Positions 1 through 26,971 of a stretch of 27,862 bases of DNA are shown piece by piece; positions within the stretch are counted from its first letter, which is position 1; every line of letters begins with the position of its first letter. The notes beneath the pieces were generated by a model that was not told the DNA's origin, did not search any database, and saw only the letters and a program-made list of their open reading frames with translations. This DNA comes from a virus (lineage: Duplodnaviria > Heunggongvirae > Uroviricota > Caudoviricetes), in IMG/VR virus record IMGVR_UViG_2561511241_000007, positions 1 to 27,862 of that record. One strand, given 5' to 3'. The translations under genes and the position numbers were made by a program.

Positions 1-582
1 TTACCCTATAGGTGCTACTGGCCATTCAATATCCGGTGCAGTTGTTGTATTAACACGGTTCAGCAACACCCGATACTTCTTCCAGGCTTCCAGCAACGAG
101 ATTTCTTCCTCCGTTGCGATTTCCAGATCTACAGCATCCTGAAGTGGCGCAATATGCTCACTGGCTACCTGCATCAGGCTGTTTTTTGTTTCTTCTGCCT
201 CCCGAATCCGGAACAGTTTTTCTGCTTCCGTATCCTTCACCCAGGCTGTGCCGTTCCACTTCTGATATTCCCCTCCCGGCGACAACCAGGTAACATTTTC
301 CGGTAACGGACCGAGTTCAGAAATAAATAACGCGTCGCCGGAAGCCACGTCATAAACCGTTTTACCCCGATGGTCTTCAACGAGATGCCACGATGCCTCA
401 TCACTGTTGAAAACAGCCACGAAGCCTGCCGGAATATCTGGTGGTGCAATATCGGTACTGTTTGCTGGCAGACCTGTATGAGGCGGAATATATGCGTCAC
501 CTTCACCAATAAATTCATTAGTTCCGGCCAGCAGATTATAAATTTTTATGGTCCGTGCTTGTTCACTCATTCTGAATGCCAT
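1..582 (-). CDS. tfa: tail fiber assembly protein (lambda Tfa-like)
   Basis: Complete 193-aa ORF (ATG at 582, TAA at 1-3); translation matches lambda Tfa as recalled; start overlaps the stf stop (TAATG). Confidence 0.9.
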
Positions 583-1400
583 TATGCAAGCCTCACAATA
601 TAGTTAAATGCGATGTTTTTGACGGTGTTTTCCGCGTTACCCGCAGCGTTAACGGTGATGGTGTGTCCATGTGAGCCAATCGCAACCGAGTGCGTATGCG
701 CACCAATACCTACAGTATGTGCATGTGCGCCAGAACTTGCTGCAGTACCAGACAGCGAGTGGGTATGAGCACCTGCTGACTGTGTCTGAATACGTTGATA
801 ATACGATCTACTGGAAGAAGTCCCCGGGCTTACTTGATACTGTGAATCCTTGACATAAGTGAACCCACCGCCATCATAAAATGCTAACGCAGAACCGCCG
901 CCTCCTGGCCAACGAATACCATTACCATGAGTATGAGCACCGGCAGACCCCGTAGAGCCACTCAGACTGTGCGTATGCGCCCCGGTGTTATTCGTGGATT
1001 TAGTGCCGTAATCAAACGACGATGTGGTTTTCGTCCCCAAATCCGTACTGGATGCGCTGGCGCTGTGGGTGTGCGATTTAATGCCGTCCTGTTCCTGAGA
1101 CAATACGGCACGACCACTGGCAGGTTTGCCCTTAATCGTCCAGCCACGCATATCAGGGATCACGCCTGACGGATAAGCGGCTGCAAGTTTCGGGTAGGCA
1201 GATTTGTCAAAAGTCTGCCCCTGCATCAGGGCATAACCAGACGGAACGGTATCTGATGGCCACGGGATTGGTGCGCCGACTGGGTAGCTTTCTGGTGGAA
1301 GATTTTTCGAGGTATAAACTTCTGCCCAGCCTTCCTCAAAACCATAACCGTCTCTTGAAGAACGGTAGAACAGACCACCATTTCTGTAATGCGCCTTCAT
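582..1400 (-). CDS. stf: side tail fiber protein, C-terminal receptor-binding portion only (lambda Stf-like, truncated)
   Basis: Translation from GAPIPWPSD to the [11 protein letters not shown] end matches the lambda Stf C-terminus as recalled, including GAHTHS repeats; the N-terminal ~500 aa of a full Stf are absent; reading frame is open to 1448 but the first plausible start is MKAHYRN at 1400. Confidence 0.8.
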
Positions 1401-1596
1401 GACCGTTAATATTTTCCTGCTCAACAGAACACAGCGTGGTGACATCAATATCCTGCTTTTGTCCTGCGGTAAACTGCACCTCTTTGATTGTACAGCTCAG
1501 ACCAAGATAGCTGGCAGAATCCAGGGTTTCTGCTGTTACCGGTGCAGACGAAATCATAATTTTCGTCAGTTGCGAACGCTCAAAATTAGAGGACAT
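1336..1596 (-). CDS. hypothetical protein, possible N-terminal remnant of a deleted tail gene
   Basis: 87-aa ORF starting [10 protein letters not shown] with an AGGAGA Shine-Dalgarno 7 nt upstream; sits where a major tail protein is expected after the connector genes; overlaps the stf fragment out of frame by about 64 nt. Confidence 0.35.
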
Positions 1597-1610
1597 ACTC
1601 GTCTCCTGAA

Positions 1611-1640
1611 AATAAAAAACCCGCCAGCGGCGGGTGGGTA
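1611..1640 (-). terminator. rho-independent terminator (minus strand)
   Basis: Hairpin CCCGCC-AGCG-GCGGG followed on the minus strand by TTTTTTATTTT. Confidence 0.55.
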
Positions 1641-1655
1641 AAATCATTAACGACC

Positions 1656-2000
1656 TCAGGCTATTACCTGAAATTCAAGCGTGGCTCTGCTCAGACGGGA
1701 ATCAGGATCATAACCCTGAGTTTTAGAAATAACGGAGGGTGCAAGTTGCCTTACCGCATCAAGCGCCTGCTCACGGATATCATCTGCGTCATCAGGTACT
1801 GTTGCCCAGACATCGATCTGCACGGTAATTCTGGATTCAGCCTGACCATCAAGCACATCAGACGCAGTGTCAGACACCACAGAAAATACCAGCCATGGCG
1901 GAGATACCGCAGGCTTTCCCTCCGTCAGCGGGACCACATAAGGATAAACCTGTCCTCCGGCCAGTTGAGACAGCAGGGAATACAGTGTGGTCTCTCTCAT
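1656..2000 (-). CDS. tail completion / tail terminator-like protein (DUF3168-like)
   Basis: 114-aa ORF in the position and size class of HK97 gp11-type proteins; start overlaps the upstream gene. Confidence 0.55.
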   Translation of the reverse strand: MRETTLYSLLSQLAGGQVYPYVVPLTEGKPAVSPPWLVFSVVSDTASDVLDGQAESRITVQIDVWATVPDDADDIREQALDAVRQLAPSVISKTQGYDPDSRLSRATLEFQVIA

Positions 2001-2446
2001 TTACTTAAGACCTCATCAATAGCCTGATTCATTCGCTGTATGGCAATCTGTGCTGCCAGTTCCTCTGTCGTATCGAAAGCCGGGCGAATGAACGGATGCG
2101 CGGGCATGTTTATCGTTCCCAGCTCCACAAAGCGCCAGTAAAACGCATTTCGGGGATCACTGGCTTTCATGCTGTTATCACTGTTTCCGGTCCGCAGGTT
2201 CCGTCCACGAATGTGGACACCCGAGATAATTTCCCCCCGACGCTTTGAACGCTGAGTGAGAACAACCACATTTTTCTTCAGTTTCCCGGTTCGCTCCGGC
2301 GCACGTTCAACAACTGCATCCCGCATAACTTCAGCACCGGCACGGGTGGCATCGCGCAGTACCTTATTGTTTTCTGCCCTGCTGAGCGTCTCCAGATCCC
2401 GTGCAATATCCGCCAGACCTGAAAAATCAAGACTGAAATCCATCAC
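1997..2446 (-). CDS. HK97 gp10-family head-tail joining protein
   Basis: 149-aa ORF with the gp10-family character; translationally coupled to flanking connector genes. Confidence 0.7.
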   Translation of the reverse strand: MMDFSLDFSGLADIARDLETLSRAENNKVLRDATRAGAEVMRDAVVERAPERTGKLKKNVVVLTQRSKRRGEIISGVHIRGRNLRTGNSDNSMKASDPRNAFYWRFVELGTINMPAHPFIRPAFDTTEELAAQIAIQRMNQAIDEVLSK

Positions 2447-2781
2447 ACATTCCCCTTCTGAGAACAGAGTATCTCAAGCCGTGTGGCACGAGCATCCGGT
2501 ATCGGCGGACCGTCTATACTCAGAATCGCGCCTTTGAATGCACCAGTCAGCACTTTCAGACATGAAGTTGCTGTTACATCTCGCCGGAATCTCATCCAGA
2601 CCCTCACTGTAGCCTGAGCAGTTTCTGCGCCTCCGGATATTCTCTCCCTGCCACTGATCCCCTTAACTTCTGCCCATATGGTTGCCCCCTCCGTCATTGT
2701 TTCCACAGGGTGCCCTGACGGAGACCGAACGGTGGTGGCATTCAGAATAACCACACGATCACGTAATCTTCCTGCCTGCAT
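2443..2781 (-). CDS. head closure / head-tail adaptor protein
   Basis: 112-aa ORF between gp6-like and gp10-like genes, typical position and size. Confidence 0.65.
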   Translation of the reverse strand: MQAGRLRDRVVILNATTVRSPSGHPVETMTEGATIWAEVKGISGRERISGGAETAQATVRVWMRFRRDVTATSCLKVLTGAFKGAILSIDGPPIPDARATRLEILCSQKGNV

Positions 2782-2789
2782 GAATCCTC

Positions 2790-3095
2790 CTATGTTCCGG
2801 GATGAAATCGATACATCCGCAGTCCGGTATAGAAAAAATCAGGCACTGCATCCTGCATTTCCCTGTTCTCGTACCAGTAGCCAACCAGTTGCATAAGACG
2901 CAGTTTTATCAGAGGTGTTATTACAAGCCCGGTCGTATCCTGCTCAGAAACAGTTTCATCGTAAAGCGTCCGGTTTAAAAACTTTTCAGCCTCTTCCCTG
3001 GCAGCAGCCAGATACATCATAAGAAGAGAATTCTCCTGTTCATTGTCATCATCAATCCGGCACTGAACACGAAGCTCTTCCAGAGTGGGCATCAT
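2790..3095 (-). CDS. head-tail connector (gp6-like) protein
   Basis: 101-aa acidic ORF in the position typical of gp6-like connector proteins downstream of the capsid gene. Confidence 0.6.
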   Translation of the reverse strand: MMPTLEELRVQCRIDDDNEQENSLLMMYLAAAREEAEKFLNRTLYDETVSEQDTTGLVITPLIKLRLMQLVGYWYENREMQDAVPDFFYTGLRMYRFHPGT

Positions 3096-3106
3096 TTGGG
3101 CAACCT

Positions 3107-3295
3107 CTATGAATGCTGTTTTTTAGACTTATCAGCCCCCCGCGCAACAGGTGTTCTCTTATCAGAGACAATCCCAGCTGCAGTGGCAATTTCGCGTACC
3201 CGTTCGGGTAATTCTTTATCTTCATACTCACCGGCCCGAATAATCTCAACACGCATACCGTCCGGTGACCATTTCAGATCTTGTTTCAGGATCAT
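3107..3295 (-). CDS. hypothetical small protein
   Basis: 62-aa ORF filling the gap between the capsid gene and the connector gene; no recognisable motif. Confidence 0.3.
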   Translation of the reverse strand: MILKQDLKWSPDGMRVEIIRAGEYEDKELPERVREIATAAGIVSDKRTPVARGADKSKKQHS

Positions 3296-3345
3296 GATTC
3301 TTTCACCTGTCAGAACAGGGGCGCACTTCTGCGCCCCCTGAATGA

Positions 3346-4551
3346 TTACGCTGCTGCAATCTTCAGCAGTTTGATGGCCTGCGAATCGACCAGCATCCCG
3401 CCGGTGCGCTTGGTGGTATAAAAACCGACAAACGGTTTATTGGTGTACGGGTCACGCAGAATGCGGGTGCCGATACGGTCAACGATGGTGTAACCCCGTT
3501 TGAAGTTACCAAATGCAATGGCTTTCGCATCAGCGGCGATATCCGGCATCTGTTCGTTTTCAGCGATACCGTAACCCGCCAGAGAGGACGGCTGCCCCAG
3601 TTCCAGCCCCGGACGCCACAGATAGTTACCCTCGCTGTCTTTAAGCAGACGGATGGCAAACAGGCTGTTGTTGTTCATCATGAACTTCGCGCCAGTGCGG
3701 TGTGCCTTACGCAGCGTGTAAATCAGTTTGATAATGGCATCTGCGGTCACTGCCGTCGCTTCGCCGGATACAATATGCTGAAGTTTGCCGAACGCCCGGA
3801 CCTTGTCGGTTTCATCAGTGGACTCATACGCCAGGAACCCTTTCGGCTTCTTGGTACCATCGCCGGTGGTAAAGGCAATTTCTTCCTGTTCGGCAAATTC
3901 GGTTGCCAGCTCGCTGTTGATCCAGGCCTCCACGTTGAAGAAAGCATCATCCAGCATTTTCTGGGTGGCCTGCGGGTTACCGTAGATTTCCCCCATGAAA
4001 GGTTCAATCAGTCCCAGTTTTGAGGTGGCAGTCTGGGAGCGCGCGTCAGTCTCGCCAACCCATCCGGAAGCCGTGCCGCCCAGATTCACCAGTTTTTTGT
4101 AGTCGGAACCGCCAACGGTGATCACCGTGGCTTCCTGGCGCATCACCACTTCATCTTTCAGCAGATTGAGAATGTTGCGATCCAGTTCTTCCGGCACGGC
4201 ATAGCCGCCGTCTTCATCGGTGCCCACCTGTAATGCCTTACGCTCCAGATCGCGCAGACCATCTTCACGGCCTTTACGCAGGAAGCCCACAAACGCTTCT
4301 TTATGCTCGGTGGCCAGTTTATTTTGCGCACCACCTGCCGGACGTTTCAGCTCAAGCAGCTCTTTTTCAAGATCGCTTTTGAGATTTTCCAGCTCGCTGA
4401 GTTTTCCGTTCAGGGTTTCCACCTGCCCGGCAAGTTTGCCTTTTTCCTGCTCAATCGCCTCAACGCGCTTGTCGTTCTTTGCTTTGAAGTCGTCAAACTT
4501 CTGCTGCAGCTCCTGCGCGACCTGTTCGACATCTTTAATATCAACCGCCAT
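3346..4551 (-). CDS. major capsid protein, HK97 family
   Basis: 401-aa ORF with an N-terminal coiled-coil delta-domain-like region followed by an HK97-fold-like body; directly downstream of the prohead protease. Confidence 0.9.
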   Translation of the reverse strand: MAVDIKDVEQVAQELQQKFDDFKAKNDKRVEAIEQEKGKLAGQVETLNGKLSELENLKSDLEKELLELKRPAGGAQNKLATEHKEAFVGFLRKGREDGLRDLERKALQVGTDEDGGYAVPEELDRNILNLLKDEVVMRQEATVITVGGSDYKKLVNLGGTASGWVGETDARSQTATSKLGLIEPFMGEIYGNPQATQKMLDDAFFNVEAWINSELATEFAEQEEIAFTTGDGTKKPKGFLAYESTDETDKVRAFGKLQHIVSGEATAVTADAIIKLIYTLRKAHRTGAKFMMNNNSLFAIRLLKDSEGNYLWRPGLELGQPSSLAGYGIAENEQMPDIAADAKAIAFGNFKRGYTIVDRIGTRILRDPYTNKPFVGFYTTKRTGGMLVDSQAIKLLKIAAA

Positions 4552-4565
4552 CGTATTTCTCCTGA

Positions 4566-5252
4566 TTAGAAGTTCAGATTTTTCAGTGCATTCAGTGCAG
4601 AGCCCACATCCTCAGCGTCGCGCAGGGACAGTGCGCCATAGCCCCCGGCCATGAATGCTTTGGCCTGGGTACGGGAGAGTCCGACATCACGCAGGACTCT
4701 TTCGATTTTTTTCTGTTCGGGGATTTCCCCGCGGGCCAGTGCGTTCTTGACGTCGCTGATCCGCGCCTCGTCGTTAGACGGGAACGTCACCAGGCTGACT
4801 TCCCAGAGGTCGATTTCTTTCAGCAGAAAGGCTTCTTTGCTCCGGTCGTATTCCCAGTCTTTCAGGACGTACCCAATAGAAAGGCCGGTTAACGAACCGG
4901 CCTTCATGTGTGCATGTGCGCGTTTTGCGAGGGGATCATCATCAATAAGCAACCGTCCCCTGACGTAAAGCCCGACATCGTCTTCCTTCATTTCGGTGTA
5001 AACACCGATGGGTTCATCCATGCGGTGCTGCCAGAGCAGCGCAGGTAACGCTTTTCTGTCACTCCACGCCCGCAGGGAAGCAGCAAATGCCCCGGACATC
5101 ACCACATCATCGTGGCTGTCCTTTACACCAAAGACGGAGCCATACCCTTCAAACTCACCGGAGTCACTGACAGATTTCAGACTCAGCGGTACATCAAGAC
5201 GTTGTTTCGTCTGCATTGGCGTTATCCTTCTGCTTACCGGCTTTACTGCCAT
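4566..5252 (-). CDS. prohead protease, HK97 family
   Basis: 228-aa ORF between portal and capsid genes; alternative start at 5216 would reduce the overlap with portal. Confidence 0.8.
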   Translation of the reverse strand: MAVKPVSRRITPMQTKQRLDVPLSLKSVSDSGEFEGYGSVFGVKDSHDDVVMSGAFAASLRAWSDRKALPALLWQHRMDEPIGVYTEMKEDDVGLYVRGRLLIDDDPLAKRAHAHMKAGSLTGLSIGYVLKDWEYDRSKEAFLLKEIDLWEVSLVTFPSNDEARISDVKNALARGEIPEQKKIERVLRDVGLSRTQAKAFMAGGYGALSLRDAEDVGSALNALKNLNF

Positions 5253-6435
5253 CGGAGGGTTTCGTGGTCATGTTCATCGGGGTGAGATAGACATCACCAC
5301 CGGGACGCGGATTCATATCTTCCAGGTCGCGGCAGTCATTAGGAGAGTAAATTCCCCAGTTGATCCCGGTGGCGTAGGCTTCAAAACGGGACTTCATATC
5401 CCCGCGCAGTAACGCCCCGGCGTTAAATTTGGCGTAATAAACGCCCTGCTTACTTTTTCGTACCAGTCCGGTGTTGATCCGCTGCTCAATGCGGGTCAGA
5501 TACGGCACCAGTGAATAGTTGATAAATCCCAGCCCCAGCTCTTCGATATTGTTGAAGGTGGCGCGATCGGTGTTCTGCACCATGTGCAACGGCACCCGAA
5601 ACAGACGACAGATTTCTTCAAGCTGAAACTTGCGGGTTTCCAGGAACTGGCTGTCCTCGGCGTTCAGCGCCATCGACTTCCAGTCCAGCCCCATCTCAAG
5701 GATCATCGGGCGGTGAGCATTGCCAAGCCTGGTGTGACGCTCCTCAAAATCTTTCTTCAGGCGCTCGTAAGCCTGATCTGACAGCGTCTGCTCTGTACGC
5801 AACACACCGGACGTCACCGCACCATTGCTGAACAGTCTGGCCCCGTGCTCTTCGGTCGCTGCCGCCAGCGATATTGCCTCGCGGGCATAGGCGATGGGAT
5901 TCAGCCCCACCAGTCCGTCCAGCGTCAGCGTGCGCACATGCCAGATATCCTCCTGGCTCAGTACATCCGTGGAGCCGTCCGGGAATGTGACCTGATAGAC
6001 CGGCTCCCAGCTACTGTTAAGCTTCGGTACCACACAGCCAGGATCGACGGGCAGCAGTTCAGCCACTTCGCCAAATGCTTTCACTTTGTAGGCGTAAAAG
6101 TTTCCCCTCAGGCACAGACAGGTGACCACCAGCTCCCAGAACTCCTGCGGCGTCATATATCCATTGGGATGCGTGGAGATCAGCTTATGCAGACGTTCGC
6201 CGGTGGCTCTCTGTTTCAGGCTGCCGTTCAGGTGATACAGATTGCAGGGCAACATCCCGACCGACTCTGCCAGCACCCTGACGCAGGAAAAAACCGCCGT
6301 CAGTCGCATGGCCCGCTGGCTGCTGATCTGCTTTCCGGTATAGGTGTCGTATGACAGCCCGATAGCATCCGCCAGCTCTGCTGGCGTGGTCACCGGCGCG
6401 TCACTTTTTCGTTGAAATAATCCCGAAAAGAACAC
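5194..6435 (-). CDS. portal protein, HK97 family
   Basis: 413-aa ORF downstream of the large terminase, size and position typical of a portal. Confidence 0.85.
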   Translation of the reverse strand: MFFSGLFQRKSDAPVTTPAELADAIGLSYDTYTGKQISSQRAMRLTAVFSCVRVLAESVGMLPCNLYHLNGSLKQRATGERLHKLISTHPNGYMTPQEFWELVVTCLCLRGNFYAYKVKAFGEVAELLPVDPGCVVPKLNSSWEPVYQVTFPDGSTDVLSQEDIWHVRTLTLDGLVGLNPIAYAREAISLAAATEEHGARLFSNGAVTSGVLRTEQTLSDQAYERLKKDFEERHTRLGNAHRPMILEMGLDWKSMALNAEDSQFLETRKFQLEEICRLFRVPLHMVQNTDRATFNNIEELGLGFINYSLVPYLTRIEQRINTGLVRKSKQGVYYAKFNAGALLRGDMKSRFEAYATGINWGIYSPNDCRDLEDMNPRPGGDVYLTPMNMTTKPSDGSKAGKQKDNANADETTS

Positions 6436-6617
6436 TATTTACCTCCGCCGACAGACGGCTGTGTACGGTCGAGATATCGCGCCACCAGCCACGACCAGAA
6501 CAGGCACAGCGCCCCGGCAACAACAAAACCCGCCGGGGGATAAATCAGCCAGGCACCATACGCCAGCAAAAGCGCACCCAGCACGCCCACCAGTGGCGCG
6601 AGAATTATCAGAAACAT
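6435..6617 (-). CDS. small membrane protein between terminase and portal
   Basis: 60-aa ORF that is almost entirely hydrophobic (two predicted TM helices). Confidence 0.45.
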
Positions 6618-6628
6618 AATGACCTCGG

Positions 6629-8386
6629 TTAAAGCGAGCGGATGCCCACGCTGACCAGATGTTCAGACAGATCCGGCTCCGGTTCACCACCATTGACCAG
6701 CATCCGGCTCATTGCTGTAAACATCGCAACAGGGCCGTCGATTTTGGCTTCCAGCGTGGATTTATTCGGGAAGATATTGTCGTTTTTGTCCGGTTTTACC
6801 GTAACGTTAGACATCATCCAGTTCATGACCGGATGATTGCTGTGATGGAAACGTCCGGCATAGACCAGTGATTCCGTTTCCTTCATGGCCTCTGACAGAT
6901 TGCGAACCGTCTGCGGAACCTCCACCAGCGGTATCCCTTCTTCAGCCAGTGCTAGGCTGAACTGCATCGCGCTCCACGGGTCAAATCCCAGTTCCCTGAG
7001 GTTTTCACCACCAATCCATTCCAGTAAGTCACTTTTTATCTGAGCATGATCGATAACATCACCATCCGTCAGAATCAGCTTATCCATCTCCGCCCACTTC
7101 CGGTAAAGTTCTGCCTGCTGCCGCGAGCATCGTTCCAGCCGTCCTTCCGGGAGCCAGAATTTAAAATCGGCATGAACATGCCCGTTATCCGTTCGCCAGA
7201 GTTTTGCCGCCGCACAGATATCAATCTTATGAGCAAGGTCAACGCCGACCCACATGGGATACGTTTTCAGCTCATGTCGCGGGGCAATGTATTCGCACTT
7301 CTCCCACTTAATCATGTCCATCCAGGCAGACTCTGCTGTTACCCACACATTCATGTGTTTGGTAAAAAAATTCACCCGCGCAGAGACCTGTTCTTTCGCT
7401 TTTTTCGCCAGACGACGCAGATCATCCCAGCGTTTACAGATGCCCAGGCCAGGATTCGCTTTCTGCCAGACCGTTTCATCAAACGGATCATCTCCCTCAT
7501 CGAGGGTGTAAATAATCGCAAAGTAGGAGTCGTCTTTTACAGCGCCCTCCACGTCGCTGTTATAGCCACGCAATACCTTGATGGCATAATCACGCTGCTC
7601 GTAACAAATCCCTTCCTTGTTAAACCCTGCCGTGGTGATACCAAATAAAAGGGACTGCAGACGGGCACCGGTTGCCGTTTCCAGAACGTCCCACACGTCA
7701 CGGGTTTTATGTGCATGCAGCTCATCAATAATGGCGCAGTGGATGTTCAGACCATCCAGGTTGTTTGCATCCGAAGAAAGCGGTTCAAATTTTGATGCGC
7801 TCTGCTCCTGGTAAATCGCCAGCTTGTTGAAATCAAACAACCGCCCGAGTGTCGACCGGGCTTTTCTGACCATATTTTTGGCGTCTTCAAACACGATTCT
7901 GGCCTGGTCACGCGTGGTTGCGGCTGAATACACCTCAGCACCGCCTTCACCATCTGCCCCCGTCATATACAGACCGATACCCGATGACAGGGTTGATTTT
8001 GCGTTTTTACGGGCAACTTCGTTGTATGCTGTCCGGAACCGGCGCACCATCACCGGGCGCCCGCTGCCATCGCTGCGCATGACAACTTCCCCGGTCTCTT
8101 CATTGACCAGCGGAATGACAAAACCAAAAATATTAATGAGGATAAATACATGCCAGTCCATCAACTCAATAGGCTGGCCTGCCAGCGCCCCTTTTACATG
8201 AGGCACAAATTTGTAGAAATTCAGGATGTGCTGCGCACGTGGTTCACTGAAATAAATCCCCCGCTCTTCGCCGTACTTTAGATCATCAAGAAAACGCTGG
8301 CAGGCCAGGCGGACAAATTCGCCAGCAACAATTTCTCCTGCAACAACACGTTCGGCGTAGCGGATCCCGTCAGCCACTTTTGCCAT
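6629..8386 (-). CDS. terminase large subunit
   Basis: 585-aa ORF with an N-terminal ATPase region and C-terminal nuclease region; start overlaps the small-subunit stop. Confidence 0.9.
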
Positions 8387-8868
8387 CAGTCTCTCGCTTT
8401 TAAAAGCTCCGCCAGCGGATCAACATCATCCGGTCCGGCAATATTTACTTTAGCCCGGCTTGCCGGTGACATACCAAACTCTGCAAGCATTGCCCGGATC
8501 CGCTTCCAGGCATCCGCTTTCATTGCCGCCGCGGGGTGCGCCTTAATCAGTACATCACCGCTCTGCGTTTCCGTGCGGTAGGTATACCCCTCAACATCGA
8601 GTGTTTCGCAGTGATGCCGATATTCGGTATAGGCTTCCACCAGCAACTCGAGTGCACGCGCATCAAGCTGAGAAATGATCCCTTCCGCATTCAGCTCTTC
8701 CGCCATTCGCCTGAACCAGTACTTCCCCTGTGCCCCTAAATGCTGCGGAATTTTAGGGAGACCTTTTTCATCCTTTTTAGCGGTTTTTTTTGAGTCTTTA
8801 ACGGGGCGCTTTGAGGGGTTGCCTCGTATCAAATGCAGGCGTGGCGGGGTTTTCGGAGGTCCTGACAT
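8386..8868 (-). CDS. terminase small subunit (P27 family-like)
   Basis: 160-aa ORF with a basic N-terminus, immediately upstream of the large terminase. Confidence 0.75.
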   Translation of the reverse strand: MSGPPKTPPRLHLIRGNPSKRPVKDSKKTAKKDEKGLPKIPQHLGAQGKYWFRRMAEELNAEGIISQLDARALELLVEAYTEYRHHCETLDVEGYTYRTETQSGDVLIKAHPAAAMKADAWKRIRAMLAEFGMSPASRAKVNIAGPDDVDPLAELLKARD

Positions 8869-9015
8869 AATCGGTCTTACCTATCAATCGTTTGTTCACA
8901 TTTCCAAAAAAAGTTTTCGAACCTGCGGCGATGTGAGGAAGGGTCAGGCGGCGGTACTGAGCTGCCAGGGTTGCAGAGATTTGACCCGCCCCTCCCCTAC
9001 AGATGGGAACTGTTA

Positions 9016-9402
9016 TCAATTAATGCGTTCGCGCGCTGTTTTTGCTTTATGGCAGGGCCAGCACAGACTCTGCAGATTACTGTCTGCATCCGTGCCACCA
9101 TGAGCTTTCGGAATGATGTGGTCCACAGTTCTGGCTTCAACGGCTCTCCCATCGCGCAGGCAGTTCTGACACAGATGATTATCACGCTTCAGTATGCGCG
9201 CACGTATGGCATCCCATTTCGTGCCATAGCCACGCTGGTGGCGACTTAGTCCGCGTTGATGCTGTACCCAGCCTTCACCACGATGTTTATCGCAGTAGCC
9301 AGAGATGTCTGTTGTTTTGCCTGCGCAGCCACGCTTACGGCATGCGCGGGGGATTTGTGATGGCATAGAACTTCGCTCCGCTAAAAAATATTCTGCTCTC
9401 AC
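9016..9402 (-). CDS. HNH endonuclease (terminase-associated)
   Basis: C-terminal motif CQNCLRDG...VDHIIPKAHGG...NLQSLCWPCH is a classical HNH; alternative start at 9366 has a GGAG Shine-Dalgarno. Confidence 0.85.
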   Translation of the reverse strand: MRAEYFLAERSSMPSQIPRACRKRGCAGKTTDISGYCDKHRGEGWVQHQRGLSRHQRGYGTKWDAIRARILKRDNHLCQNCLRDGRAVEARTVDHIIPKAHGGTDADSNLQSLCWPCHKAKTARERIN

Positions 9403-9605: not shown

Positions 9606-9989
9606 TCAGCGTTTCAACTGAAAGTGAGGCCCGTCTTTCAGTGTTTTCCAGTCCCCGCCCCATTCGATGGCAGTTCCCAGCTCTGCGGCAGCCTGCTTAA
9701 ATGCCTGCGCTATTTTCTCGTACAGAGGCCAGTCCCATGACACCTGGCTGCCAACCCAGGCAACAACATCCACCGCATCACCGGTCAGGTGGCGGCTGTT
9801 CATGGTCTGGCTTTTCCCTTCCGCGACCAGCTGTTTCTGGCGTTCTTTCGTGCGCAGCCCTTCCGTAATACCGAAATCAACCTCCGTCAGCTCCAGCGCA
9901 CGGCGAACGACAGCAACCAGCTGTGGTTTAACGCCCTCCAGATTCTTTTCGCTGCGACGACTAAATCTGAATTTACCCGACATATTCAC
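9606..9989 (-). CDS. endolysin, M15-family peptidase (L-alanyl-D-glutamate peptidase-like)
   Basis: 127-aa ORF sharing the VKP..L...VRRALEL...DF.I..G.RT...HLTGDA.D pattern with the T5-type endolysin as recalled. Confidence 0.8.
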   Translation of the reverse strand: MNMSGKFRFSRRSEKNLEGVKPQLVAVVRRALELTEVDFGITEGLRTKERQKQLVAEGKSQTMNSRHLTGDAVDVVAWVGSQVSWDWPLYEKIAQAFKQAAAELGTAIEWGGDWKTLKDGPHFQLKR

Positions 9990-10261
9990 CTCAACAATGG
10001 AAAGATTTTTGTGACGTTCCCGCGCGCGCGTATCACCAGCACGCAGAACAGCAGATTAAAAAACACTTCAGGCCAGCCCGTTGCTAACGGGCGACCACAC
10101 AGATAGCTGAGGGGCGCAAAGGCATACAGCAGCATCAGCAGCCAGGCCAGCCATGACATCAGCGGTTTATGTCTGGAATCACGGCGACGATAAAAAAAGA
10201 GCGCCAGCACGATAACCGTGCATAACGCCACATTCAGCAATCCGGGAAGGTTACTTAACAT
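9986..10261 (-). CDS. lysis-cassette membrane protein (holin partner or antiholin candidate)
   Basis: 91-aa ORF from ATG 10261 with several hydrophobic segments; overlaps the holin stop and the endolysin start. Confidence 0.45.
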   Translation of the reverse strand: MLSNLPGLLNVALCTVIVLALFFYRRRDSRHKPLMSWLAWLLMLLYAFAPLSYLCGRPLATGWPEVFFNLLFCVLVIRARGNVTKIFPLLR

Positions 10262-10643
10262 TGCCGCCTCCTCCACCCCGCAGGCGGGAGAACATACCGG
10301 ACACCAGCGATGCAATATCCTGCTGGTGGATGAACGAGAGAATCTTCACCGACACCACTGACACCAGCACTGCACACAGTGCGTCGACGGGTGCACCGTC
10401 AAACCCTGTATGCTTTACCAGCCAGGATGCCAGAACCTCTGCGCCCAGCACGCCGATAATGAACGACACCAGAAAATGCGCCGCCACACGCCAGGCTGAA
10501 AGTGCCTGCGGCATCGTTGCCACAAATAACGCCCCGGCGAACGCACCAAACACAATCCCGAAATCCGTTCCGGTAAACAGCCCGAATACTGTCGCTCCAC
10601 CGAGCGCCGCAGCCGTGCCGGAACCGGATAAGGGTTCAGACAT
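10251..10643 (-). CDS. putative holin
   Basis: 130-aa ORF with glycine-rich TM helices and a charged C-terminus; first gene of the lysis cluster. Confidence 0.6.
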   Translation of the reverse strand: MSEPLSGSGTAAALGGATVFGLFTGTDFGIVFGAFAGALFVATMPQALSAWRVAAHFLVSFIIGVLGAEVLASWLVKHTGFDGAPVDALCAVLVSVVSVKILSFIHQQDIASLVSGMFSRLRGGGGGNVK

Positions 10644-12740: not shown

Positions 12741-13454
12741 TCAAAAATCAAGCCCTTGCATAGATACATATCTGTCTGGCGGGAAGCCATAATAGCGGTG
12801 AAATACAGAGATAAAGTAGGATCTACTTGAATAACCGCATTTTTCTGCTACAGCCTGTCCATATCCATGCCGGGAGCATAACATATTTACAGCAACCCGC
12901 ATCCGTTCCTCAAGTAACAAATTACTGAACCTGAGACCTTCATCCTTGAGTTTTTTCTTTAACAAGCTCTCACTCATATGCAACTGTAGAGCAATCGCAC
13001 CAAGCGTCCAGCTTGCTGATATATCTGTTTGAATTATCGCTCTGACTTTGGCACTTATACTGGATAAACATCCACTTAAAAATAATAACATCCGTTCATC
13101 TGATTCAAACAACGACAGGCAGGCCATCATAAGAAACATGTCCGTGGTCTCTCCGGAAAGTCTCTGGCTGGTAATTAAAGCCACAGCCAACGCAGGATTG
13201 TTGGGTTCCTGCGACAAGTAAAGCGGAATGTCAGTCAGAGGAGTTCTTGTCAGCTTATGCTGACTTTCCAGATATTGACTTACTATAGAATGGTTTATAT
13301 CGACAATTTTAACTTTGCCATAATGCATAAGGAAAAGCTCCCTGATGCATTTGGTGGCCAAAACAACTGAGCCGGGCTTAAGTGACAACGTATCCTTTTC
13401 AAGAAAAATATTAATTGGGGAGCAAACCATGATAACTGAACAGACAACAGCCAT
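12741..13454 (-). CDS. AraC-family transcriptional regulator, AppY-like
   Basis: 237-aa ORF, AT-rich; C-terminal AraC HTH; N-terminus and overall pattern resemble DLP12 AppY as recalled. Confidence 0.75.
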   Translation of the reverse strand: MAVVCSVIMVCSPINIFLEKDTLSLKPGSVVLATKCIRELFLMHYGKVKIVDINHSIVSQYLESQHKLTRTPLTDIPLYLSQEPNNPALAVALITSQRLSGETTDMFLMMACLSLFESDERMLLFLSGCLSSISAKVRAIIQTDISASWTLGAIALQLHMSESLLKKKLKDEGLRFSNLLLEERMRVAVNMLCSRHGYGQAVAEKCGYSSRSYFISVFHRYYGFPPDRYVSMQGLDF

Positions 13455-13979: not shown

Positions 13980-14654
13980 TTACAGTGAAAATGCCGCCTT
14001 TTGTTTTGAACGTGTTCTCGTCACGAACAATAAAGCCTCACTATCCAGCCGATGAAAAGTGTGTTTCATTGCAACCCAGTGACCAGTAAATGTTTTGGAC
14101 CAGTTTTTAGTTGTCACTCCCGCCAGTAATGCCAGCTCCTGGTATTCATAACCTTCCCCACCAAAAAGTTCTGCTTTTACTGCCTGCGCCGCCAGCCAGA
14201 TTAATTTTTTCAGGCGTTCCTGCGTTTTCCCTGCAATTTTTCTGGTACCGGATTGAGTATTAAATTCATTCCACGCCCACTGTGTTATCGCGATCTGATA
14301 TTCCCAACAAATACTCCCGCTGTAACACCACAACAACCAGGCTTTATGATGTTCTTCAAGAGACAGAACAGCCCGCCGCCACGATGATGTCGAAAACTCA
14401 ACCGGACTGACCAGAGGAATTGACGTCCCCTTCGCCAGCGATTGCTTTCCCGGGATTGGTGGATAATCCCGCGTTATCATTTTTCCAGTCACTTCATCGC
14501 GGTACCGGATTTTTTTTCGCCTGTAACGCCCTGTATCGAACATGGCATTCTCTTGCCAGGCTTCAAGCTGACCTTTTGTTGCCCCACTCAAATCAGCGGT
14601 GGCGATAATGAGCTGCTCGCGCACAAACTGTAAATACTGGTTATTCATGCGCAC
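13980..14654 (-). CDS. late-gene antitermination protein Q
   Basis: 224-aa ORF directly upstream of the promoter/terminator pair and downstream of rusA, the canonical Q position. Confidence 0.65.
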   Translation of the reverse strand: MRMNNQYLQFVREQLIIATADLSGATKGQLEAWQENAMFDTGRYRRKKIRYRDEVTGKMITRDYPPIPGKQSLAKGTSIPLVSPVEFSTSSWRRAVLSLEEHHKAWLLWCYSGSICWEYQIAITQWAWNEFNTQSGTRKIAGKTQERLKKLIWLAAQAVKAELFGGEGYEYQELALLAGVTTKNWSKTFTGHWVAMKHTFHRLDSEALLFVTRTRSKQKAAFSL

Positions 14655-16513: not shown

Positions 16514-16669
16514 TTACTCCTCAGGTTCGTAAGCTGTGAAGACAGCGACCTCCGTCTGGCCGGTTCGGATTCGTACCTCGCAGAGGTCTTTCCTCGTTAC
16601 CAGTGCCGTCACTATGACGGTTAAACAGATGACGATCAGGGCGATTAGCATCGCCTTTTGCTGCTTCAT
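16514..16669 (-). CDS. hokD: Hok/Gef-family small toxin (HokD/RelF-like)
   Basis: 51-aa product matches E. coli HokD as recalled; the frame is open a further 19 codons upstream to 16726. Confidence 0.9.
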   Translation of the reverse strand: MKQQKAMLIALIVICLTVIVTALVTRKDLCEVRIRTGQTEVAVFTAYEPEE

Positions 16670-17293
16670 AGCCTGCTTCTCCTTGCCTTTCGGCACGTAA
16701 GAGGCTAACCTAGATTTGCCGTTCATAGATTGAGCCTCAGATTAATGTTAAGCGTCTTGCAGGACGCGTAATGTTAACTGGGGCTTTTCTCTATCTGCCT
16801 TTGGTGTTCATGCCTGAGACAGATAGCCTCAAGCACCCGCAGCCATTCTACTTAACTCCCGTTACCTCGCCAATATGAAATCAGTCAGAAAGGCGATCCA
16901 TAAGAACAACAGCAAGGCAATAAATTGCCATTACAGCAGCAATAGCCAGCGCACATTTGAGAACCAGCACCACAACCTCCTGTATTGGACGTACACCAGT
17001 CCTGATAAATATGAGGCTGTCTCGTCAGTGATTCAATACAACTATTGGGTATAGTTTCTGTGATTTTGTTCTGTAGAAATGGAACACAACAACCAGTCAC
17101 CACCAGCACTTCTTTAAATACGCCAAGTCCGACGCAAGCTAACTTTCTAGTCCGCTTTGAGCGAAAAGCAGACTGTCACGCGTTGAAGTTAATTGTATTA
17201 CTTAGATAAACACTATCATTTTCCTGACGTTAAGTTGTATCTTTGATAGGATTAAAAAACGTATAGATAGCTTATGCTACTGAGGGAATAAAA

Positions 17294-18103
17294 ATGACGA
17301 AAATTAGTGAACGATGGAAGCACAATGGCATTACTGAAGGTTATTGCAATATTTGTGGGAAATATGGCTTGCTCACAAAAGATCATGTTCCTCCAAAGTG
17401 CGCCATAACCTTAGGCCCTGTTTTGCAGAAAACAGTTAGCGAATTTTTTGGTATTCAGGAACCAGTTAAACCATTAAATGCTAAAAATGGCTCTTATTTC
17501 AGAACCATTTGCAGCCACTGTAACAATAAGGTATTAGGTGGGCTCGATGTTGCAATTGAAAATGTAACAAAGTCCTTTAAAGAACAGTTAAGTCGATATA
17601 TGAATGGTATGAATGTATATCCATTCATTAGAATACCTTTTGATAGCATATCTTTCACTAAGGCTATGATTGGGCACGTGCTATCAGCAACTTCAGTTGA
17701 AGATTGTAAAAAAGAACCCGTAGATAGCCCCTTCTATACACCTTTAAAGGATTATGTTTTGGGTAAAAATTCAAGTTTTGAGGAAACTCATGATATTTAC
17801 TACTGGTTTTACCCACACAGAATGCACATATCCGCTCAAAGTGTAGCATTTATGAACGAAGGACATGTGGCATTTATTTGTGCTTTACATTTTTTCCCTA
17901 TCGGTTTTATTATCACAATGAAAAATGAAGGAACATACCCTGCCCACTCTACAAAATTAGAACTTGAAGATAAATTCCTTACATTTAATATGACCTCTAT
18001 AAATTATGAGTATACGACATTTCCATTTGTAAATCTTAAGGGAAACCAAATGTATGCGATAAGCAACGGTCATACTTGTGTGAGTTATCCAATAATTAAG
18101 TGA
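17294..18103 (+). CDS. HNH/zinc-finger nuclease-motif protein with an uncharacterised C-terminal domain (cargo gene)
   Basis: 269-aa ORF with a GAGGGA Shine-Dalgarno; N-terminal C-x2-C...DH...N...C-x-H-C-N pattern; much lower GC than neighbours; opposite strand to all flanking phage genes. Confidence 0.7.
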   Translation: MTKISERWKHNGITEGYCNICGKYGLLTKDHVPPKCAITLGPVLQKTVSEFFGIQEPVKPLNAKNGSYFRTICSHCNNKVLGGLDVAIENVTKSFKEQLSRYMNGMNVYPFIRIPFDSISFTKAMIGHVLSATSVEDCKKEPVDSPFYTPLKDYVLGKNSSFEETHDIYYWFYPHRMHISAQSVAFMNEGHVAFICALHFFPIGFIITMKNEGTYPAHSTKLELEDKFLTFNMTSINYEYTTFPFVNLKGNQMYAISNGHTCVSYPIIK

Positions 18104-19854: not shown

Positions 19855-20280
19855 TCAATGTACTGCCACAGCATTTCCTGCCGGGCCACCACGGTTCATC
19901 TGATTGAAACCGGCGATTGCCACTGCGACAAAATCATCAGCGTCTCTCACCAATCGCTCCCGCGTCTCCACCAGCTCCCGAAAATAAGCTGAACTGTGGC
20001 TGCGCATTCTGGCCACCAGCAAAGGTGGCATTGCCTTTTCGATCGCTGGTAACAACGCCTGAATTTTTTCAACTGCATCAGGGGTGTCTTTCTCTACCCA
20101 GCGGAAAATTTTCTGGGTATTGCGAGCCAGGGCTTCCGGATGGCTGTCGTCATACAGTTCAGGAAACGTCATACCCAACTCAAAATAAGCCTGGGTTATT
20201 CCAGCTGCTGGAACTTTTTCGCCATCAGGACGCGCCCAGGCATTCATCGCCATGCGGATGTGTTCATGCTTGATTTTCAT
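19855..20280 (-). CDS. YdaT-like protein (CII functional analogue family)
   Basis: 141-aa ORF starting MKIKHEHI, as I recall for Rac YdaT; sits directly downstream of the cro-like gene. Confidence 0.6.
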   Translation of the reverse strand: MKIKHEHIRMAMNAWARPDGEKVPAAGITQAYFELGMTFPELYDDSHPEALARNTQKIFRWVEKDTPDAVEKIQALLPAIEKAMPPLLVARMRSHSSAYFRELVETRERLVRDADDFVAVAIAGFNQMNRGGPAGNAVAVH

Positions 20281-20507
20281 GAATCCCCCCCTTGGTTAGA
20301 AGGCGGATTATGATCAGAACCGGGAATGACAACCGTCGGTATGTGTAACTCATATTTGAGCGCCCCGGCAGTGACAGCCTGAATTAGCAACGCCCATTTC
20401 CACGGAACCTCTTCCCCCCACATGCTGACTGTGGTTTTTGACGTTCCTAGAGCTGCGGCTGTTTTAACAACTCCGCCAAAATAGCCTAATACTTCTGATT
20501 TTTTCAT
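20277..20507 (-). CDS. Cro-like HTH regulator (YdaS/DicC-like)
   Basis: 76 aa from ATG 20507 with a GGAG Shine-Dalgarno; HTH region VVKTAAALGTSKTTVSMW; divergent from the CI gene. Confidence 0.7.
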   Translation of the reverse strand: MKKSEVLGYFGGVVKTAAALGTSKTTVSMWGEEVPWKWALLIQAVTAGALKYELHIPTVVIPGSDHNPPSNQGGDS

Positions 20508-20598
20508 GAGTCGCTCCATAAAACTGAACGCCAAAAGTTTAATAATCAAAACCAAAGAAAGTCAAGAAACAAAACCATCTGTGTTTTAAAATCAAAAC

Positions 20599-21237
20599 AT
20601 GAGCAAGCAAACAATATCTGAACGCATAACCCAACGTATGCATGCGCTAAACCTGAAAGGCAAAGACCTTGTCAATGCCACTGGCGCATCAAAAGGCTCC
20701 GTAAGTCAATGGATGAACGGTGGAGGAGTGCCGTCCTCGCGTTACATAAGTTCACTGGCAAAGATATTGAAAGTAAACGAAAATTGGCTTCTTAATGGAG
20801 GAGAGTTAAATACAGGTGATTCGCTTGATCTATCTTTACCGCCGATAAAAACGGTTCCGCTACTATCACTTCAGCAGGCAGCAAGCTGGAGTGATTATAT
20901 GAAAAATTCCTCAATAACCTCTTGTGTGCAGCTTGTCGGAGAAATCCCGGCCAATACCTTTGCAGTTGTTCTAGAGAGTGACAGTATGTCAACATCTGGT
21001 GGGGGAGTTTCCATCCCAAATGGTTCAACAGTTTTTGTTGATCCCGATCGAACCGTACAACCAGGAAATATTGTCCTTGCCTTACCCAAAGGGACCACAA
21101 CACCTGTCATTCGTAAACTGGAGATAGAAGGGCCGGATATTCTTTTAGTCCCCACGAATCCTCGCTACCCTTCAATTATGCTGGATGATCTATCTTGCAT
21201 ATTGGGCGTATGCTTTAAAATTCAACAAGATATTTAA
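20599..21237 (+). CDS. CI-type repressor (HTH plus S24 LexA-like peptidase domain)
   Basis: 212-aa ORF with an N-terminal HTH and a C-terminal S24-like autocleavage region; no obvious Shine-Dalgarno, so possibly leaderless like lambda cI. Confidence 0.85.
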   Translation: MSKQTISERITQRMHALNLKGKDLVNATGASKGSVSQWMNGGGVPSSRYISSLAKILKVNENWLLNGGELNTGDSLDLSLPPIKTVPLLSLQQAASWSDYMKNSSITSCVQLVGEIPANTFAVVLESDSMSTSGGGVSIPNGSTVFVDPDRTVQPGNIVLALPKGTTTPVIRKLEIEGPDILLVPTNPRYPSIMLDDLSCILGVCFKIQQDI

Positions 21238-22403: not shown

Positions 22404-22460
22404 TTTCTGGTGACGTTTGGCGGTATCAGTTTTACTCCGTGACTGCTCTGCCGCCATTTT
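22404..22460 (+). ncRNA. dicF: DicF small RNA (ftsZ-targeting antisense sRNA)
   Basis: Sequence matches the 53-nt K-12 DicF as recalled except the last base, followed by a T-tract; lies between ydfC-like and dicB. Confidence 0.7.
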
Positions 22461-25600: not shown

Positions 25601-25804
25601 ATGAGCAGCTTATTTTTAACCGAAGATGAATTGCTAATATTAACGGGCTGCAAATATGCAAGCCACCAGCGAAAATGGTTAATGGAAAACGGGCTTCCGT
25701 TCTATACCAATCGTAGTGGCAAACCGATTGTCAGCCGGGATCTATTTACCTGCAATAAAACTTTACCACCACGCGAGGTAGAGCCGAATTTTGGTGCGAT
25801 CTGA
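25601..25804 (+). CDS. putative excisionase
   Basis: 67-aa ORF immediately upstream of and overlapping the integrase start (ATGA-type overlap). Confidence 0.5.
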   Translation: MSSLFLTEDELLILTGCKYASHQRKWLMENGLPFYTNRSGKPIVSRDLFTCNKTLPPREVEPNFGAI

Positions 25805-26881: not shown

Positions 26882-26971
26882 TGGCGGAGAGAGGGGGATT
26901 TGAACCCCCGGTGGAGTTGCCCCCACTCCGGTTTTCGAGACCGGTCCGTTCAGCCGCTCCGGCATCTCTCC
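26882..26971 (-). tRNA. serU: tRNA-Ser (anticodon CGA), serU-like
   Basis: 90-nt minus-strand sequence with a long variable arm and anticodon loop UCUCGAAAA, ending CCA; matches serU as recalled. Confidence 0.9.

Follow-up and report, generated by a model that had tools for sequence, protein, structure and literature searches.

A lambdoid prophage of porcine E. coli UMNK88 that has lost its tail genes in a single strain-private deletion

The stretch of DNA analysed here (27,862 nucleotides, referred to as the window) is a prophage of the porcine ETEC strain E. coli UMNK88 (CP002729.1), inserted in the serU tRNA gene. Compared with the intact prophages that siblings have at this chromosomal site, alignment shows that 13,571 bp are absent from this prophage, and this gap is a single deletion for which the endpoints, the uniqueness and the host flanks have been established. 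With a probability of about 0.9, the element is a lambdoid prophage of the HK97 head type that has undergone one recent, strain-private tail deletion and is defective on its own. Near-identity to the siblings suggests that the deletion is recent. The 27.8-kb remnant would be unable to make tails, which makes it a defective prophage on its own. Regarding the prophages of UMNK88, nothing specific was found in the literature.

The boundaries of the element were located using blastn of its right end against the left flank. The 62 nt from the serU 3' end recur 859-920 bp to the left of window base 1 and mark attL, and the element between the serU att repeats is 27.8 kb. Leftward from tfa, 860 bp are followed by this partial serU copy and then by the host genes yodB, zinT, msrQP, hiuH and hprRS. 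The original prediction had named a tail module just beyond the left edge as a finding that would overturn it, and the inspected flank holds attL and host genes. The window and the 8.6 kb leftward of it contain no tube, chaperone, tape-measure, tip or J genes. The element is an att-bounded, integrated phage genome with an adjoining integrase, from which virion-essential genes of complete relatives (tube codon 66 to stf codon 865) are gone.

Multiple intact relatives are available for comparison. The sibling in the pig strain rl0044 (NZ_CP121356.1, 2145119-2186500) occupies the same mtfA-serU/yodB site and has the same genes in the same order. This prophage is 41.4 kb long with a full tail module, whereas that of UMNK88 is 27.8 kb long and lacks the 13.57-kb tube-to-stf block. 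The two differ by 7 SNPs, two 1-nt indels and the one 13,571-bp block, with 99.96-100% nucleotide identity over 32 kb. The sibling in ETEC1749 is 100% identical over window positions 1-1400 and 99.86% identical over 1398-7829, and gives the same 13,571-bp length and the same blunt junction; a further relative is found in strain 789. The head and neck module is also common to the Stx2f phage phi467 (97.1% identity, over window positions 1398-9367 only), which is a functional phage (PMC7366253). The closest "phage" record to the head module, ON470580.1, was not accepted as virion evidence, as it was cut from a prophage in silico and contains host genes.

Alignment against intact tail regions, as proposed in the original prediction, mapped the junction to the base, between window positions 1400 and 1401, and the suspected deletion scar was borne out as one 13,571-bp loss (Table 1). 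Both junction flanks have 99.9-100% nucleotide identity to intact prophages, up to one base-pair junction, and the deletion signal is therefore far beyond chance. The join is blunt, and the two ends have 0 nt of microhomology. At one end the major tail (tube) gene has lost codons 66-234, and at the other the 1137-codon stf gene has lost codons 1-865, approximately three quarters of it; the G/T chaperones, the tape measure, M, L, K, I, J and lom are lost in between. One illegitimate, strain-private deletion would have joined the ends without homology and out of frame.

Table 1. Features of the window, with minus-strand gene order assigned by Pfam/PHROG
Feature	Position	Strand	Basis or remark
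tfa, tail fibre assembly, intact, 193 aa	1..582	-	Pfam Caudo_TAP, E=2.8e-42
stf 3' remnant, codons 866-1137 of 1137	582..1400	-	272/272 identity; Pfam; PHROG 295
Chimeric ORF, 86 aa	1336..1596	-	Tube residues 1-65 + 21 residues of wrong-frame stf DNA
Deletion junction (scar)	1400..1401		Three-way alignment window/stf side/tube side; window vs rl0044
Tube gene 5' remnant, 196 nt (65 codons + 1 nt)	1401..1596	-	65/65 N-terminal identity; PHROG 158
Terminator-like GC-rich hairpin + T-run, between gp17 and tube start	1619..1635	-	Parental sequence
gp17/DUF3168 tail terminator (Tc1-type), intact	1656-2000	-	Pfam Tail_completion_gp17; PHROG 347/78
HK97-gp10-like Neck1/tail completion, intact	1997-2446	-	Pfam HK97-gp10_like; PHROG 5
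Head closure (head completion) protein, intact	2443-2781	-	Pfam Phage_HCP, E=5.8e-21
gp6-like head-tail adaptor, intact	2790-3095	-	Pfam Phage_connect_1
HK97-type capsid	3346-4551	-	Pfam
S78 protease	4566-5216	-	Pfam
Portal	5194-6435	-	Pfam
TerL	6629-8386	-	Pfam
TerS, P27-type	8386-8868	-	Pfam
HNH	9016-9366	-	Pfam
Lysis cassette, two holins + M15 endolysin	9606..10643	-	Pfam Phage_holin_8, Phage_holin_3_7, Peptidase_M15_4
Late antiterminator Q	13980..14654	-	Pfam Phage_antiter_Q, E=1.9e-90
cro-like gene (immunity region 20277..21237)	20277-20555	-	Pfam P22_Cro
CI-like HTH+S24 repressor (immunity region)	20599-21237	+	Pfam Peptidase_S24, HTH_3
Excisionase	25601-25804	+	PHROG 1266
Tyrosine integrase	25804-26829	+	Pfam Phage_integrase
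serU tRNA-Ser(CGA), attachment site	26882-26971	-	ARAGORN

The small ORF across the junction is not an orphan, as its first 65 residues agree at 100% with the start (residues 1-65) of the 234-aa major tail protein found in intact relatives; it matches PHROG 158 "major tail protein" with E=5e-24. The intact tube homologue scores below the Pfam gathering cut-offs of Phage_TTP_11 and Phage_tail_2 and above that of Ig_2. The fusion of tube and stf is out of frame because the length of the tube remnant is not a multiple of 3. The ORF had previously been described as 87 aa lying out of frame over the stf fragment; the overlap and the frame hold, whereas the length is 86 aa (87 codons including the stop). 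A 103-aa version starting at an upstream ATG is recorded for a single contig, UMNK88 CP002729.1, and an exact look-up of the 86-aa ORF found no record. The hairpin region upstream of the tube start is unchanged in intact relatives (window positions 1398-3400 are 100% identical to many genomes).

On the other side of the junction, the stf piece corresponds to residues 866-1137 of the 1137-aa Stf of locus L013. It contains the Pfam domains Collar and Phage_fiber and matches C-terminal positions 576-794 of the tail fibre family PHROG 295, in agreement with the earlier view of a C-terminal stf fragment followed by an intact tfa. The remnant is without start signals of its own, and no ribosome-binding site was found at a usable distance from the stf tip. 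The deletion would have left this tip promoterless and start-less, with tfa next to it. The stf stop codon overlaps the tfa start (TAATG). The tfa gene has 100% nucleotide identity to the tfa genes of the intact prophages in ETEC1749 and rl0044, and the exact Tfa protein is widespread.

The junction, known from one finished assembly (CP002729.1), was looked for with 3.4-kb and 200-bp queries in 5,426 complete E. coli genomes, as well as in 50,697 phage records, and was absent from all of them. A 34-mer of the junction was also absent from JGI metagenome contigs and GTDB species representatives. The gp17 and tube gene pair is intact in 894 of the 899 genomes that carry it. The deletion is private to one strain, with no lineage.

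The head and packaging module (3346..9366) is complete, its ORFs are all full length, and it differs from that of the tail-proficient rl0044 sibling by only 3 SNPs. All ten components from HNH to gp17 score above the Pfam gathering thresholds and fall, for the connectors, in the corresponding PHROG categories, as expected for an HK97-like head with a type-1 neck; the predicted gene order of a complete HNH-to-DUF3168 set followed by no tail genes was thereby confirmed. The order of cI/cro, replication, Q, lysis, packaging, head and tail genes is lambdoid and colinear with annotated prophages. At the level of the ORFs, the genes for regulation, replication, lysis and packaging and those of the head and neck are essentially the same as in the tail-proficient sibling. 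If the element is still inducible, cell lysis would release tail-less, possibly DNA-filled heads; inducibility, head production and infectivity are inferred here.

The original prediction had offered two outcomes, a cryptic element or one that depends on a helper phage. The defective state is supported by the data, and the comparison with satellites holds as an analogy only. It is improbable that the element is a helper-dependent, head-only one, which would excise and replicate after induction, package its 27.8-kb genome in its own full-size heads, lyse the cell and borrow the tails of co-resident or co-infecting phages that have the same neck interface. Its head, packaging, adaptor and closure genes are complete, it has its own lysis cassette and Q, and it is practically identical to a tail-proficient sibling. 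Joining of heads and tails in trans is classical lambda biology, which counts for this reading, as does the finding that tail-less, DNA-filled cf-PICI capsids acquire tails after release (10.1101/2025.02.11.637232). In addition, the sibling strains rl0044 and ETEC1749 hold extra prophages whose neck and tail proteins are identical; for the second prophage of rl0044, the WP accessions agree for tube, gp17, gp10, closure, adaptor and tape measure. A twin prophage of this kind, if co-resident in UMNK88, might supply tails to the remnant; however, the terL of the twin in rl0044 is split by a satellite. The loss is also confined to one strain and shows no sign of adaptation, no small-capsid determinant or PICI-type induction module is present, and stumps of tail genes remain. 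Moreover, the genome is 67% of the parental 41.4 kb. For lambda, Feiss and Siegele (1979, cited in PMC4669245) reportedly found a drop in cos cleavage and viability in genomes shorter than about 75-78% of unit length, so that packaging of the remnant may be inefficient. Slightly less probable again is that the remnant is a tail-stealing element at its birth, which induces, packages, lyses and spreads via the tails of twin prophages in the porcine ETEC lineage. If true, it could represent a first step from prophage to capsid-forming satellite. From the sequence alone, no sign was seen of head release, of rescue by foreign tails or of selection for either.

An assembly or laboratory artefact, in the form of a mis-join, in an older assembly, among the near-identical prophage repeats of about 20 kb or a loss during laboratory passage, is very unlikely. 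The junction does occur in a single assembly only, and the region is hard to assemble because relatives hold 2-3 copies of the head-tail module (in ETEC1749, the gp17 and tube pair is present in 3 places). However, the joined points share no sequence, and collapse of repeats gives no such join. Neither point is a repeat boundary, since both rl0044 copies have the same tube gene and the sequence around the stf point is unique, and the flanks are otherwise colinear with, and near-identical to, the sibling. The reading that the small ORF, the stf tip and tfa form a natural unit, such as a receptor-binding cassette recurring in functional phages, is largely refuted and has hardly any probability left. 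In its favor, cryptic prophages often retain an stf tip with tfa, as in Qin-like prophages, in which a terminase fragment is joined to the stf tip. Yet the ORF consists of 65 tube codons that run into the wrong stf frame, the stf tip is without a usably placed ribosome-binding site, and the pair, which the original prediction had considered as a possible natural one, did not recur in any of the other genomes and phage records that were searched.

The tail deletion in a lambdoid prophage can be further compared with known systems. Capsid-forming PICIs (cf-PICIs), of which EcCIEDL933 is the prototype, are about 15 kb, have an int-alpA-rep organization, are induced by helpers, form small capsids and encode proteins <40% identical to phage homologues (10.1101/2022.09.08.507074). 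The window element resembles them in having HNH, TerS, TerL, portal, protease, capsid and connectors but no tails, and in that it would need foreign tails for infectivity. In contrast, it is 27.8 kb, is under cI/cro/Q control, has its own holins and endolysin and keeps tail stumps, and the identity of its head genes is about 99.9% with the complete sibling (3 SNPs) and 97% with phi467, not below the 40% that marks distinct capsid genes. Pfam and PHROG searches found no alpA or primase-rep module as in the small islands. No functional tail gene is present, as in the cf-PICIs, but tube and stf remnants and an intact tfa persist, and the architecture therefore reflects deletion, not tail-free design. 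Judged by its sequence, the element fails as a cf-PICI in size, regulatory module, divergent small-capsid genes and absence of lysis genes. Release of tail-less icosahedral heads by prophages has been shown experimentally for many strains of Lactococcus lactis starter cultures (PMC6154921, PMC8752148); these belong to another host and phage group, and for UMNK88 particle production is predicted only.

A further parallel is given by the Qin-type cryptic lambdoid prophages, which share the type of DicF/dicB/hok-sok early region with the window element. A deletion in these prophages likewise joins an upstream morphogenesis gene (the terminase fragment) to the stf tip, followed by tfa. In the Qin-like loci L004, L010 and L011, Tfa is identical to that of the window and the stf breakpoint lies 31 nt away. 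An identical breakpoint was considered and rejected, since re-alignment with intact stf shifts the Qin breakpoint upstream by 31 nt. Inspection by eye showed neither an invertase (hix/gix-like) site nor a convincing hairpin there, and the closeness of the two stf breakpoints is treated as coincidence or as unexplained. In the Qin type, head genes are missing as well, and this old loss is widely shared, whereas in the window only the tail is lost and the loss is private to one strain.

For the annotation of UMNK88, the 86-aa ORF and the "tail fibre" gene are the remnants of one deletion, and the prophage is tail-defective. The element is not a new kind of tail-stealing element and has little importance beyond annotation. 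It does provide a clean case of prophage decay caught early, with an exactly mapped deletion and an isogenic intact sibling. UMNK88 and rl0044 form a natural pair for asking whether full-size, tail-less heads form, exit the cell and are rescued by foreign tails.

Some minor observations concern the regulatory and integration genes. The regulators cI, cro, YdaT, an O-like gene and Q are present, and a PADLOC search of the unassigned ORFs detected no defence genes. In the integrase, the last residues are changed by a 13-nt tandem duplication (26800-26825). With a bearing on inducibility, PGAP annotates the integrase and cro on the identical rl0044 sequences as frameshifted and the repressor as the S24 (C-terminal) half only, whereas the window has open ORFs for a 341-aa Int with the catalytic H..Y motifs, a 212-aa CI and a Cro of about 80 aa.

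The prophage of Escherichia coli UMNK88 (CP002729.1) is, with a probability of about 0.9, a defective prophage derived by deletion, and it is unable to make tails. The original prediction that its head and connector genes run into a small ORF, a fragment of the side tail fibre gene (stf) and an intact tail fibre assembly gene (tfa) was borne out by Pfam and PHROG searches, from which the gene order was derived; the small ORF encodes 86 amino acids, not 87. Downstream of gp17, intact relatives carry, in this order, a 234-aa major tail protein (tube), the G/T chaperones, the tape measure, M, L, K, I, J, lom, an 1137-aa Stf and Tfa. The head, neck and packaging genes of the window are full length and differ by 3 SNPs from those of the tail-proficient sibling prophage in strain rl0044 (NZ_CP121356.1). 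The head/neck module (1398-9367) shares 97.1% identity with phi467, a recognised Stx2f-converting phage (PMC7366253).

Head-to-tail features of the UMNK88 prophage, in transcription order
Feature	Position in window	Strand	Basis or remark
HNH endonuclease	9016-9366	-	Pfam/PHROG
TerS, P27-type	8386-8868	-	Pfam/PHROG
TerL	6629-8386	-	Pfam/PHROG
60-aa ORF	between TerL and portal	-	
Portal	5194-6435	-	Pfam/PHROG
S78 prohead protease	4566-5216	-	Pfam/PHROG
HK97-type capsid	3346-4551	-	Pfam/PHROG
62-aa ORF	between capsid and gp6-like adaptor	-	
gp6-like adaptor	2790-3095	-	Pfam/PHROG
Head closure protein	2443-2781	-	Pfam/PHROG
HK97-gp10/Neck1	1997-2446	-	Pfam/PHROG
gp17/DUF3168 tail terminator	1656-2000	-	Pfam/PHROG
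Terminator-like hairpin	1619-1635		past gp17, before the junction ORF
Junction ORF	1336-1596	-	86 aa
stf-like reading frame	ends at 582	-	
tfa	1-582	-	intact

The suspected deletion scar is supported by a single gap of 13,571 bp relative to intact siblings. The stf/tfa side of the window is matched at 100% in two porcine ETEC genomes. In strain ETEC1749 (NZ_CP122712.1), the matching prophage half adjoins yodB; its stf-tfa end is 100% identical to window 1-1400 and its tube-to-TerL region 99.86% identical to 1398-7829, and the spacing of these two blocks exceeds that in the window by exactly the length of the gap. The whole prophage, 41.4 kb in length, is found in rl0044 at this mtfA-serU/yodB site as well; comparison over 32 kb shows just 7 SNPs, two single-base indels and one gap, the deletion itself, as differences from UMNK88. 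By three-way alignment, window 1400 is the last base of the stf side and 1401 the first of the tube side, and the two sides share no bases at the join. The blunt join, lacking homology and an IS element, points to illegitimate recombination, and the near-identity to the rl0044 prophage suggests that the event was recent.

No tail module is present in the 8.6 kb left of the window, where the genes are host genes: after 860 bp without called genes come yodB, zinT, msrQ, msrP, hiuH, hprR and hprS. At the right end, tRNA-Ser(CGA) (serU, 26882-26971) is followed by mtfA. The 3' 62 nt of serU recur 859-920 bp left of window base 1, so att repeats delimit the prophage, whose length is 27.8 kb.

At the junction, 196 nt of the tube gene (65 codons plus 1 nt) and 819 nt of stf (272 codons and the stop) are left. 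Since 196 is not divisible by three, reading continues from the tube gene into stf in the wrong frame and ends after 21 codons. BLASTP gave 65/65 identity between the junction ORF and tube residues 1-65, and 272/272 identity between the stf piece and Stf residues 866-1137; residues 1-65 of the ORF are also matched by PHROG 158 ('major tail protein'). The stf stump starts at an internal Met codon with the nearest AGGA about 17 nt upstream, making efficient translation unlikely; tfa begins in an overlap with the stop codon of stf, so its translation may be weak as well. An Rfam 'IS009' match above the gathering score (41-239, minus strand) lies wholly within the tfa coding region.

The junction is absent from the genomes, metagenomes and phage records searched, so the tail-less state is, on this sequence evidence, a private event of one strain and not a lineage. 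Window 1-3400 is unbroken in none of 5,426 complete E. coli genomes, the head-side match always ending at 1398-1401, and no E. coli genome covers more than 60% of a 200-bp junction query. No exact match to a junction-spanning 34-mer was found in JGI metagenome contigs or among GTDB species representatives. Among the matches listed for a 9.4-kb query, all phage records start at 1398-1403 or further right, and the only two covering at least 80% of it both start at 1398. A 103-aa version of the junction ORF is recorded on a single contig, CP002729.1, the UMNK88 chromosome, and the gp17-tube pair is intact in 894 of the 899 genomes carrying it.

Capsid-forming PICIs (cf-PICIs) are tail-less satellites of about 15 kb with an int-alpA-rep module, helper induction through alpA, small capsids and proteins less than 40% identical to phage homologues (10.1101/2022.09.08.507074); their tail-less capsids can acquire tails after release (10.1101/2025.02.11.637232). 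The UMNK88 element resembles them in outcome only, having head genes without tail genes. Its size, regulatory module, lysis genes and gene divergence all set it apart, and stumps of tail genes are still present; judged by these features, it should not be classed as a satellite. Its nearest known counterparts are ordinary defective lambdoid prophages. In Qin-like prophages, too, an upstream morphogenesis gene is fused to the stf tip plus tfa, with the stf breakpoint at nt 2565 (terminase|stf) versus nt 2596 in UMNK88 (tube|stf). Natural Lactococcus prophages are also known to release tail-less heads (PMC6154921, PMC8752148).

Induction of the deleted prophage, if it occurs, would still be expected to end in cell lysis, and heads closed by its own adaptor and head-closure proteins could be released. 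In lambda, Feiss and Siegele reportedly found in 1979 that the length of the chromosome affects terminal cos cleavage. Lambda genomes shorter than about three quarters of unit length do poorly. By this analogy, packaging into unchanged full-size heads may be inefficient, as the element, at 27.8 kb, retains only 67% of the length of its 41.4-kb parent. Supply of tails in trans is conceivable since sibling strains hold extra prophages with identical neck and tail proteins, and the gp17-tube pair occurs in three places in ETEC1749; for UMNK88 heads it is nevertheless considered very improbable.

Two independent deletions thus end at most 31 nt apart inside stf, at window 1400 and at position 9164 of the Qin-like locus L011 (also in L004, L010 and L008). 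Inspection by eye revealed neither a recombinase site nor a strong hairpin at these breakpoints. Their nearness could be coincidence; alternatively, retention of the C-terminal tip together with tfa may be tolerated or selected for.

A second rl0044 prophage, with neck and tail proteins identical to those of the serU prophage, has its terL split by a 15.4-kb insert (NZ_CP121356.1, 2868379-2883811; 25976-41408 of locus L016). This insert encodes an integrase, HTH regulators, BRO-N, Icd-like, DUF927 primase-like, SSB and PerC proteins, then capsid, protease, portal, connector, HNH, TerS and TerL, without tail or lysis genes. From this gene content, it looks like a cf-PICI that has inserted into the terminase gene of a prophage. 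Among complete E. coli genomes, 32 carry at least 80% of the insert. The match to an O157:H7 element spans 55% of it, with 83% identity.

The rest of the UMNK88 element comprises two holins, an M15 endolysin, Q, RusA, DUF968, an O-like replication initiator, YdaT, a Cro-like gene, a 212-aa HTH+S24 repressor, the dicB/DicF region, hok/sok, an 813-aa exonuclease, an excisionase and a 341-aa integrase. Rfam matches above the gathering score mark the sok antitoxin RNA (16664-16838, minus strand) and DicF (22405-22456, plus strand). In the identical rl0044 sequence, PGAP calls integrase and cro as frameshifted and the repressor for its S24 half only. The 3' end of the integrase gene carries a perfect 13-nt tandem duplication (GAAAATATTCCAA x2; 26800-26825), which causes a frameshift and changes the final few residues; the H..Y catalytic motifs lie upstream of it. 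These oddities are common to the tail-bearing siblings and are therefore older than the deletion.

Two apparent cargo genes have low GC (36-43%). One (17294-18103, plus strand) encodes a 269-aa protein of PHROG 21495, of unknown function, without a Pfam or PADLOC match; the other (12741-13454, minus strand), downstream of Q, encodes a 237-aa AraC-family regulator and adjoins a tRNA cluster (Met, Thr, Gly and a doubtful Val by ARAGORN), whose first member is tRNA-Ile by PGAP in the identical rl0044 sequence. In ETEC1749, the yodB-side tail/head half (about 3.145-3.186 Mb; L013/L014) runs into a different early region reaching an integrase that adjoins potC, and the counterpart of the window's early region, identical in sequence, is located about 1 Mb from there, at 2.134-2.152 Mb. 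This arrangement suggests that recombination between two prophages inverted a large part of the chromosome. Three of the 7 SNPs between UMNK88 and rl0044 cluster in a 22-nt stretch (9909-9930) of the M15 endolysin gene, possibly a short tract of gene conversion from another prophage.
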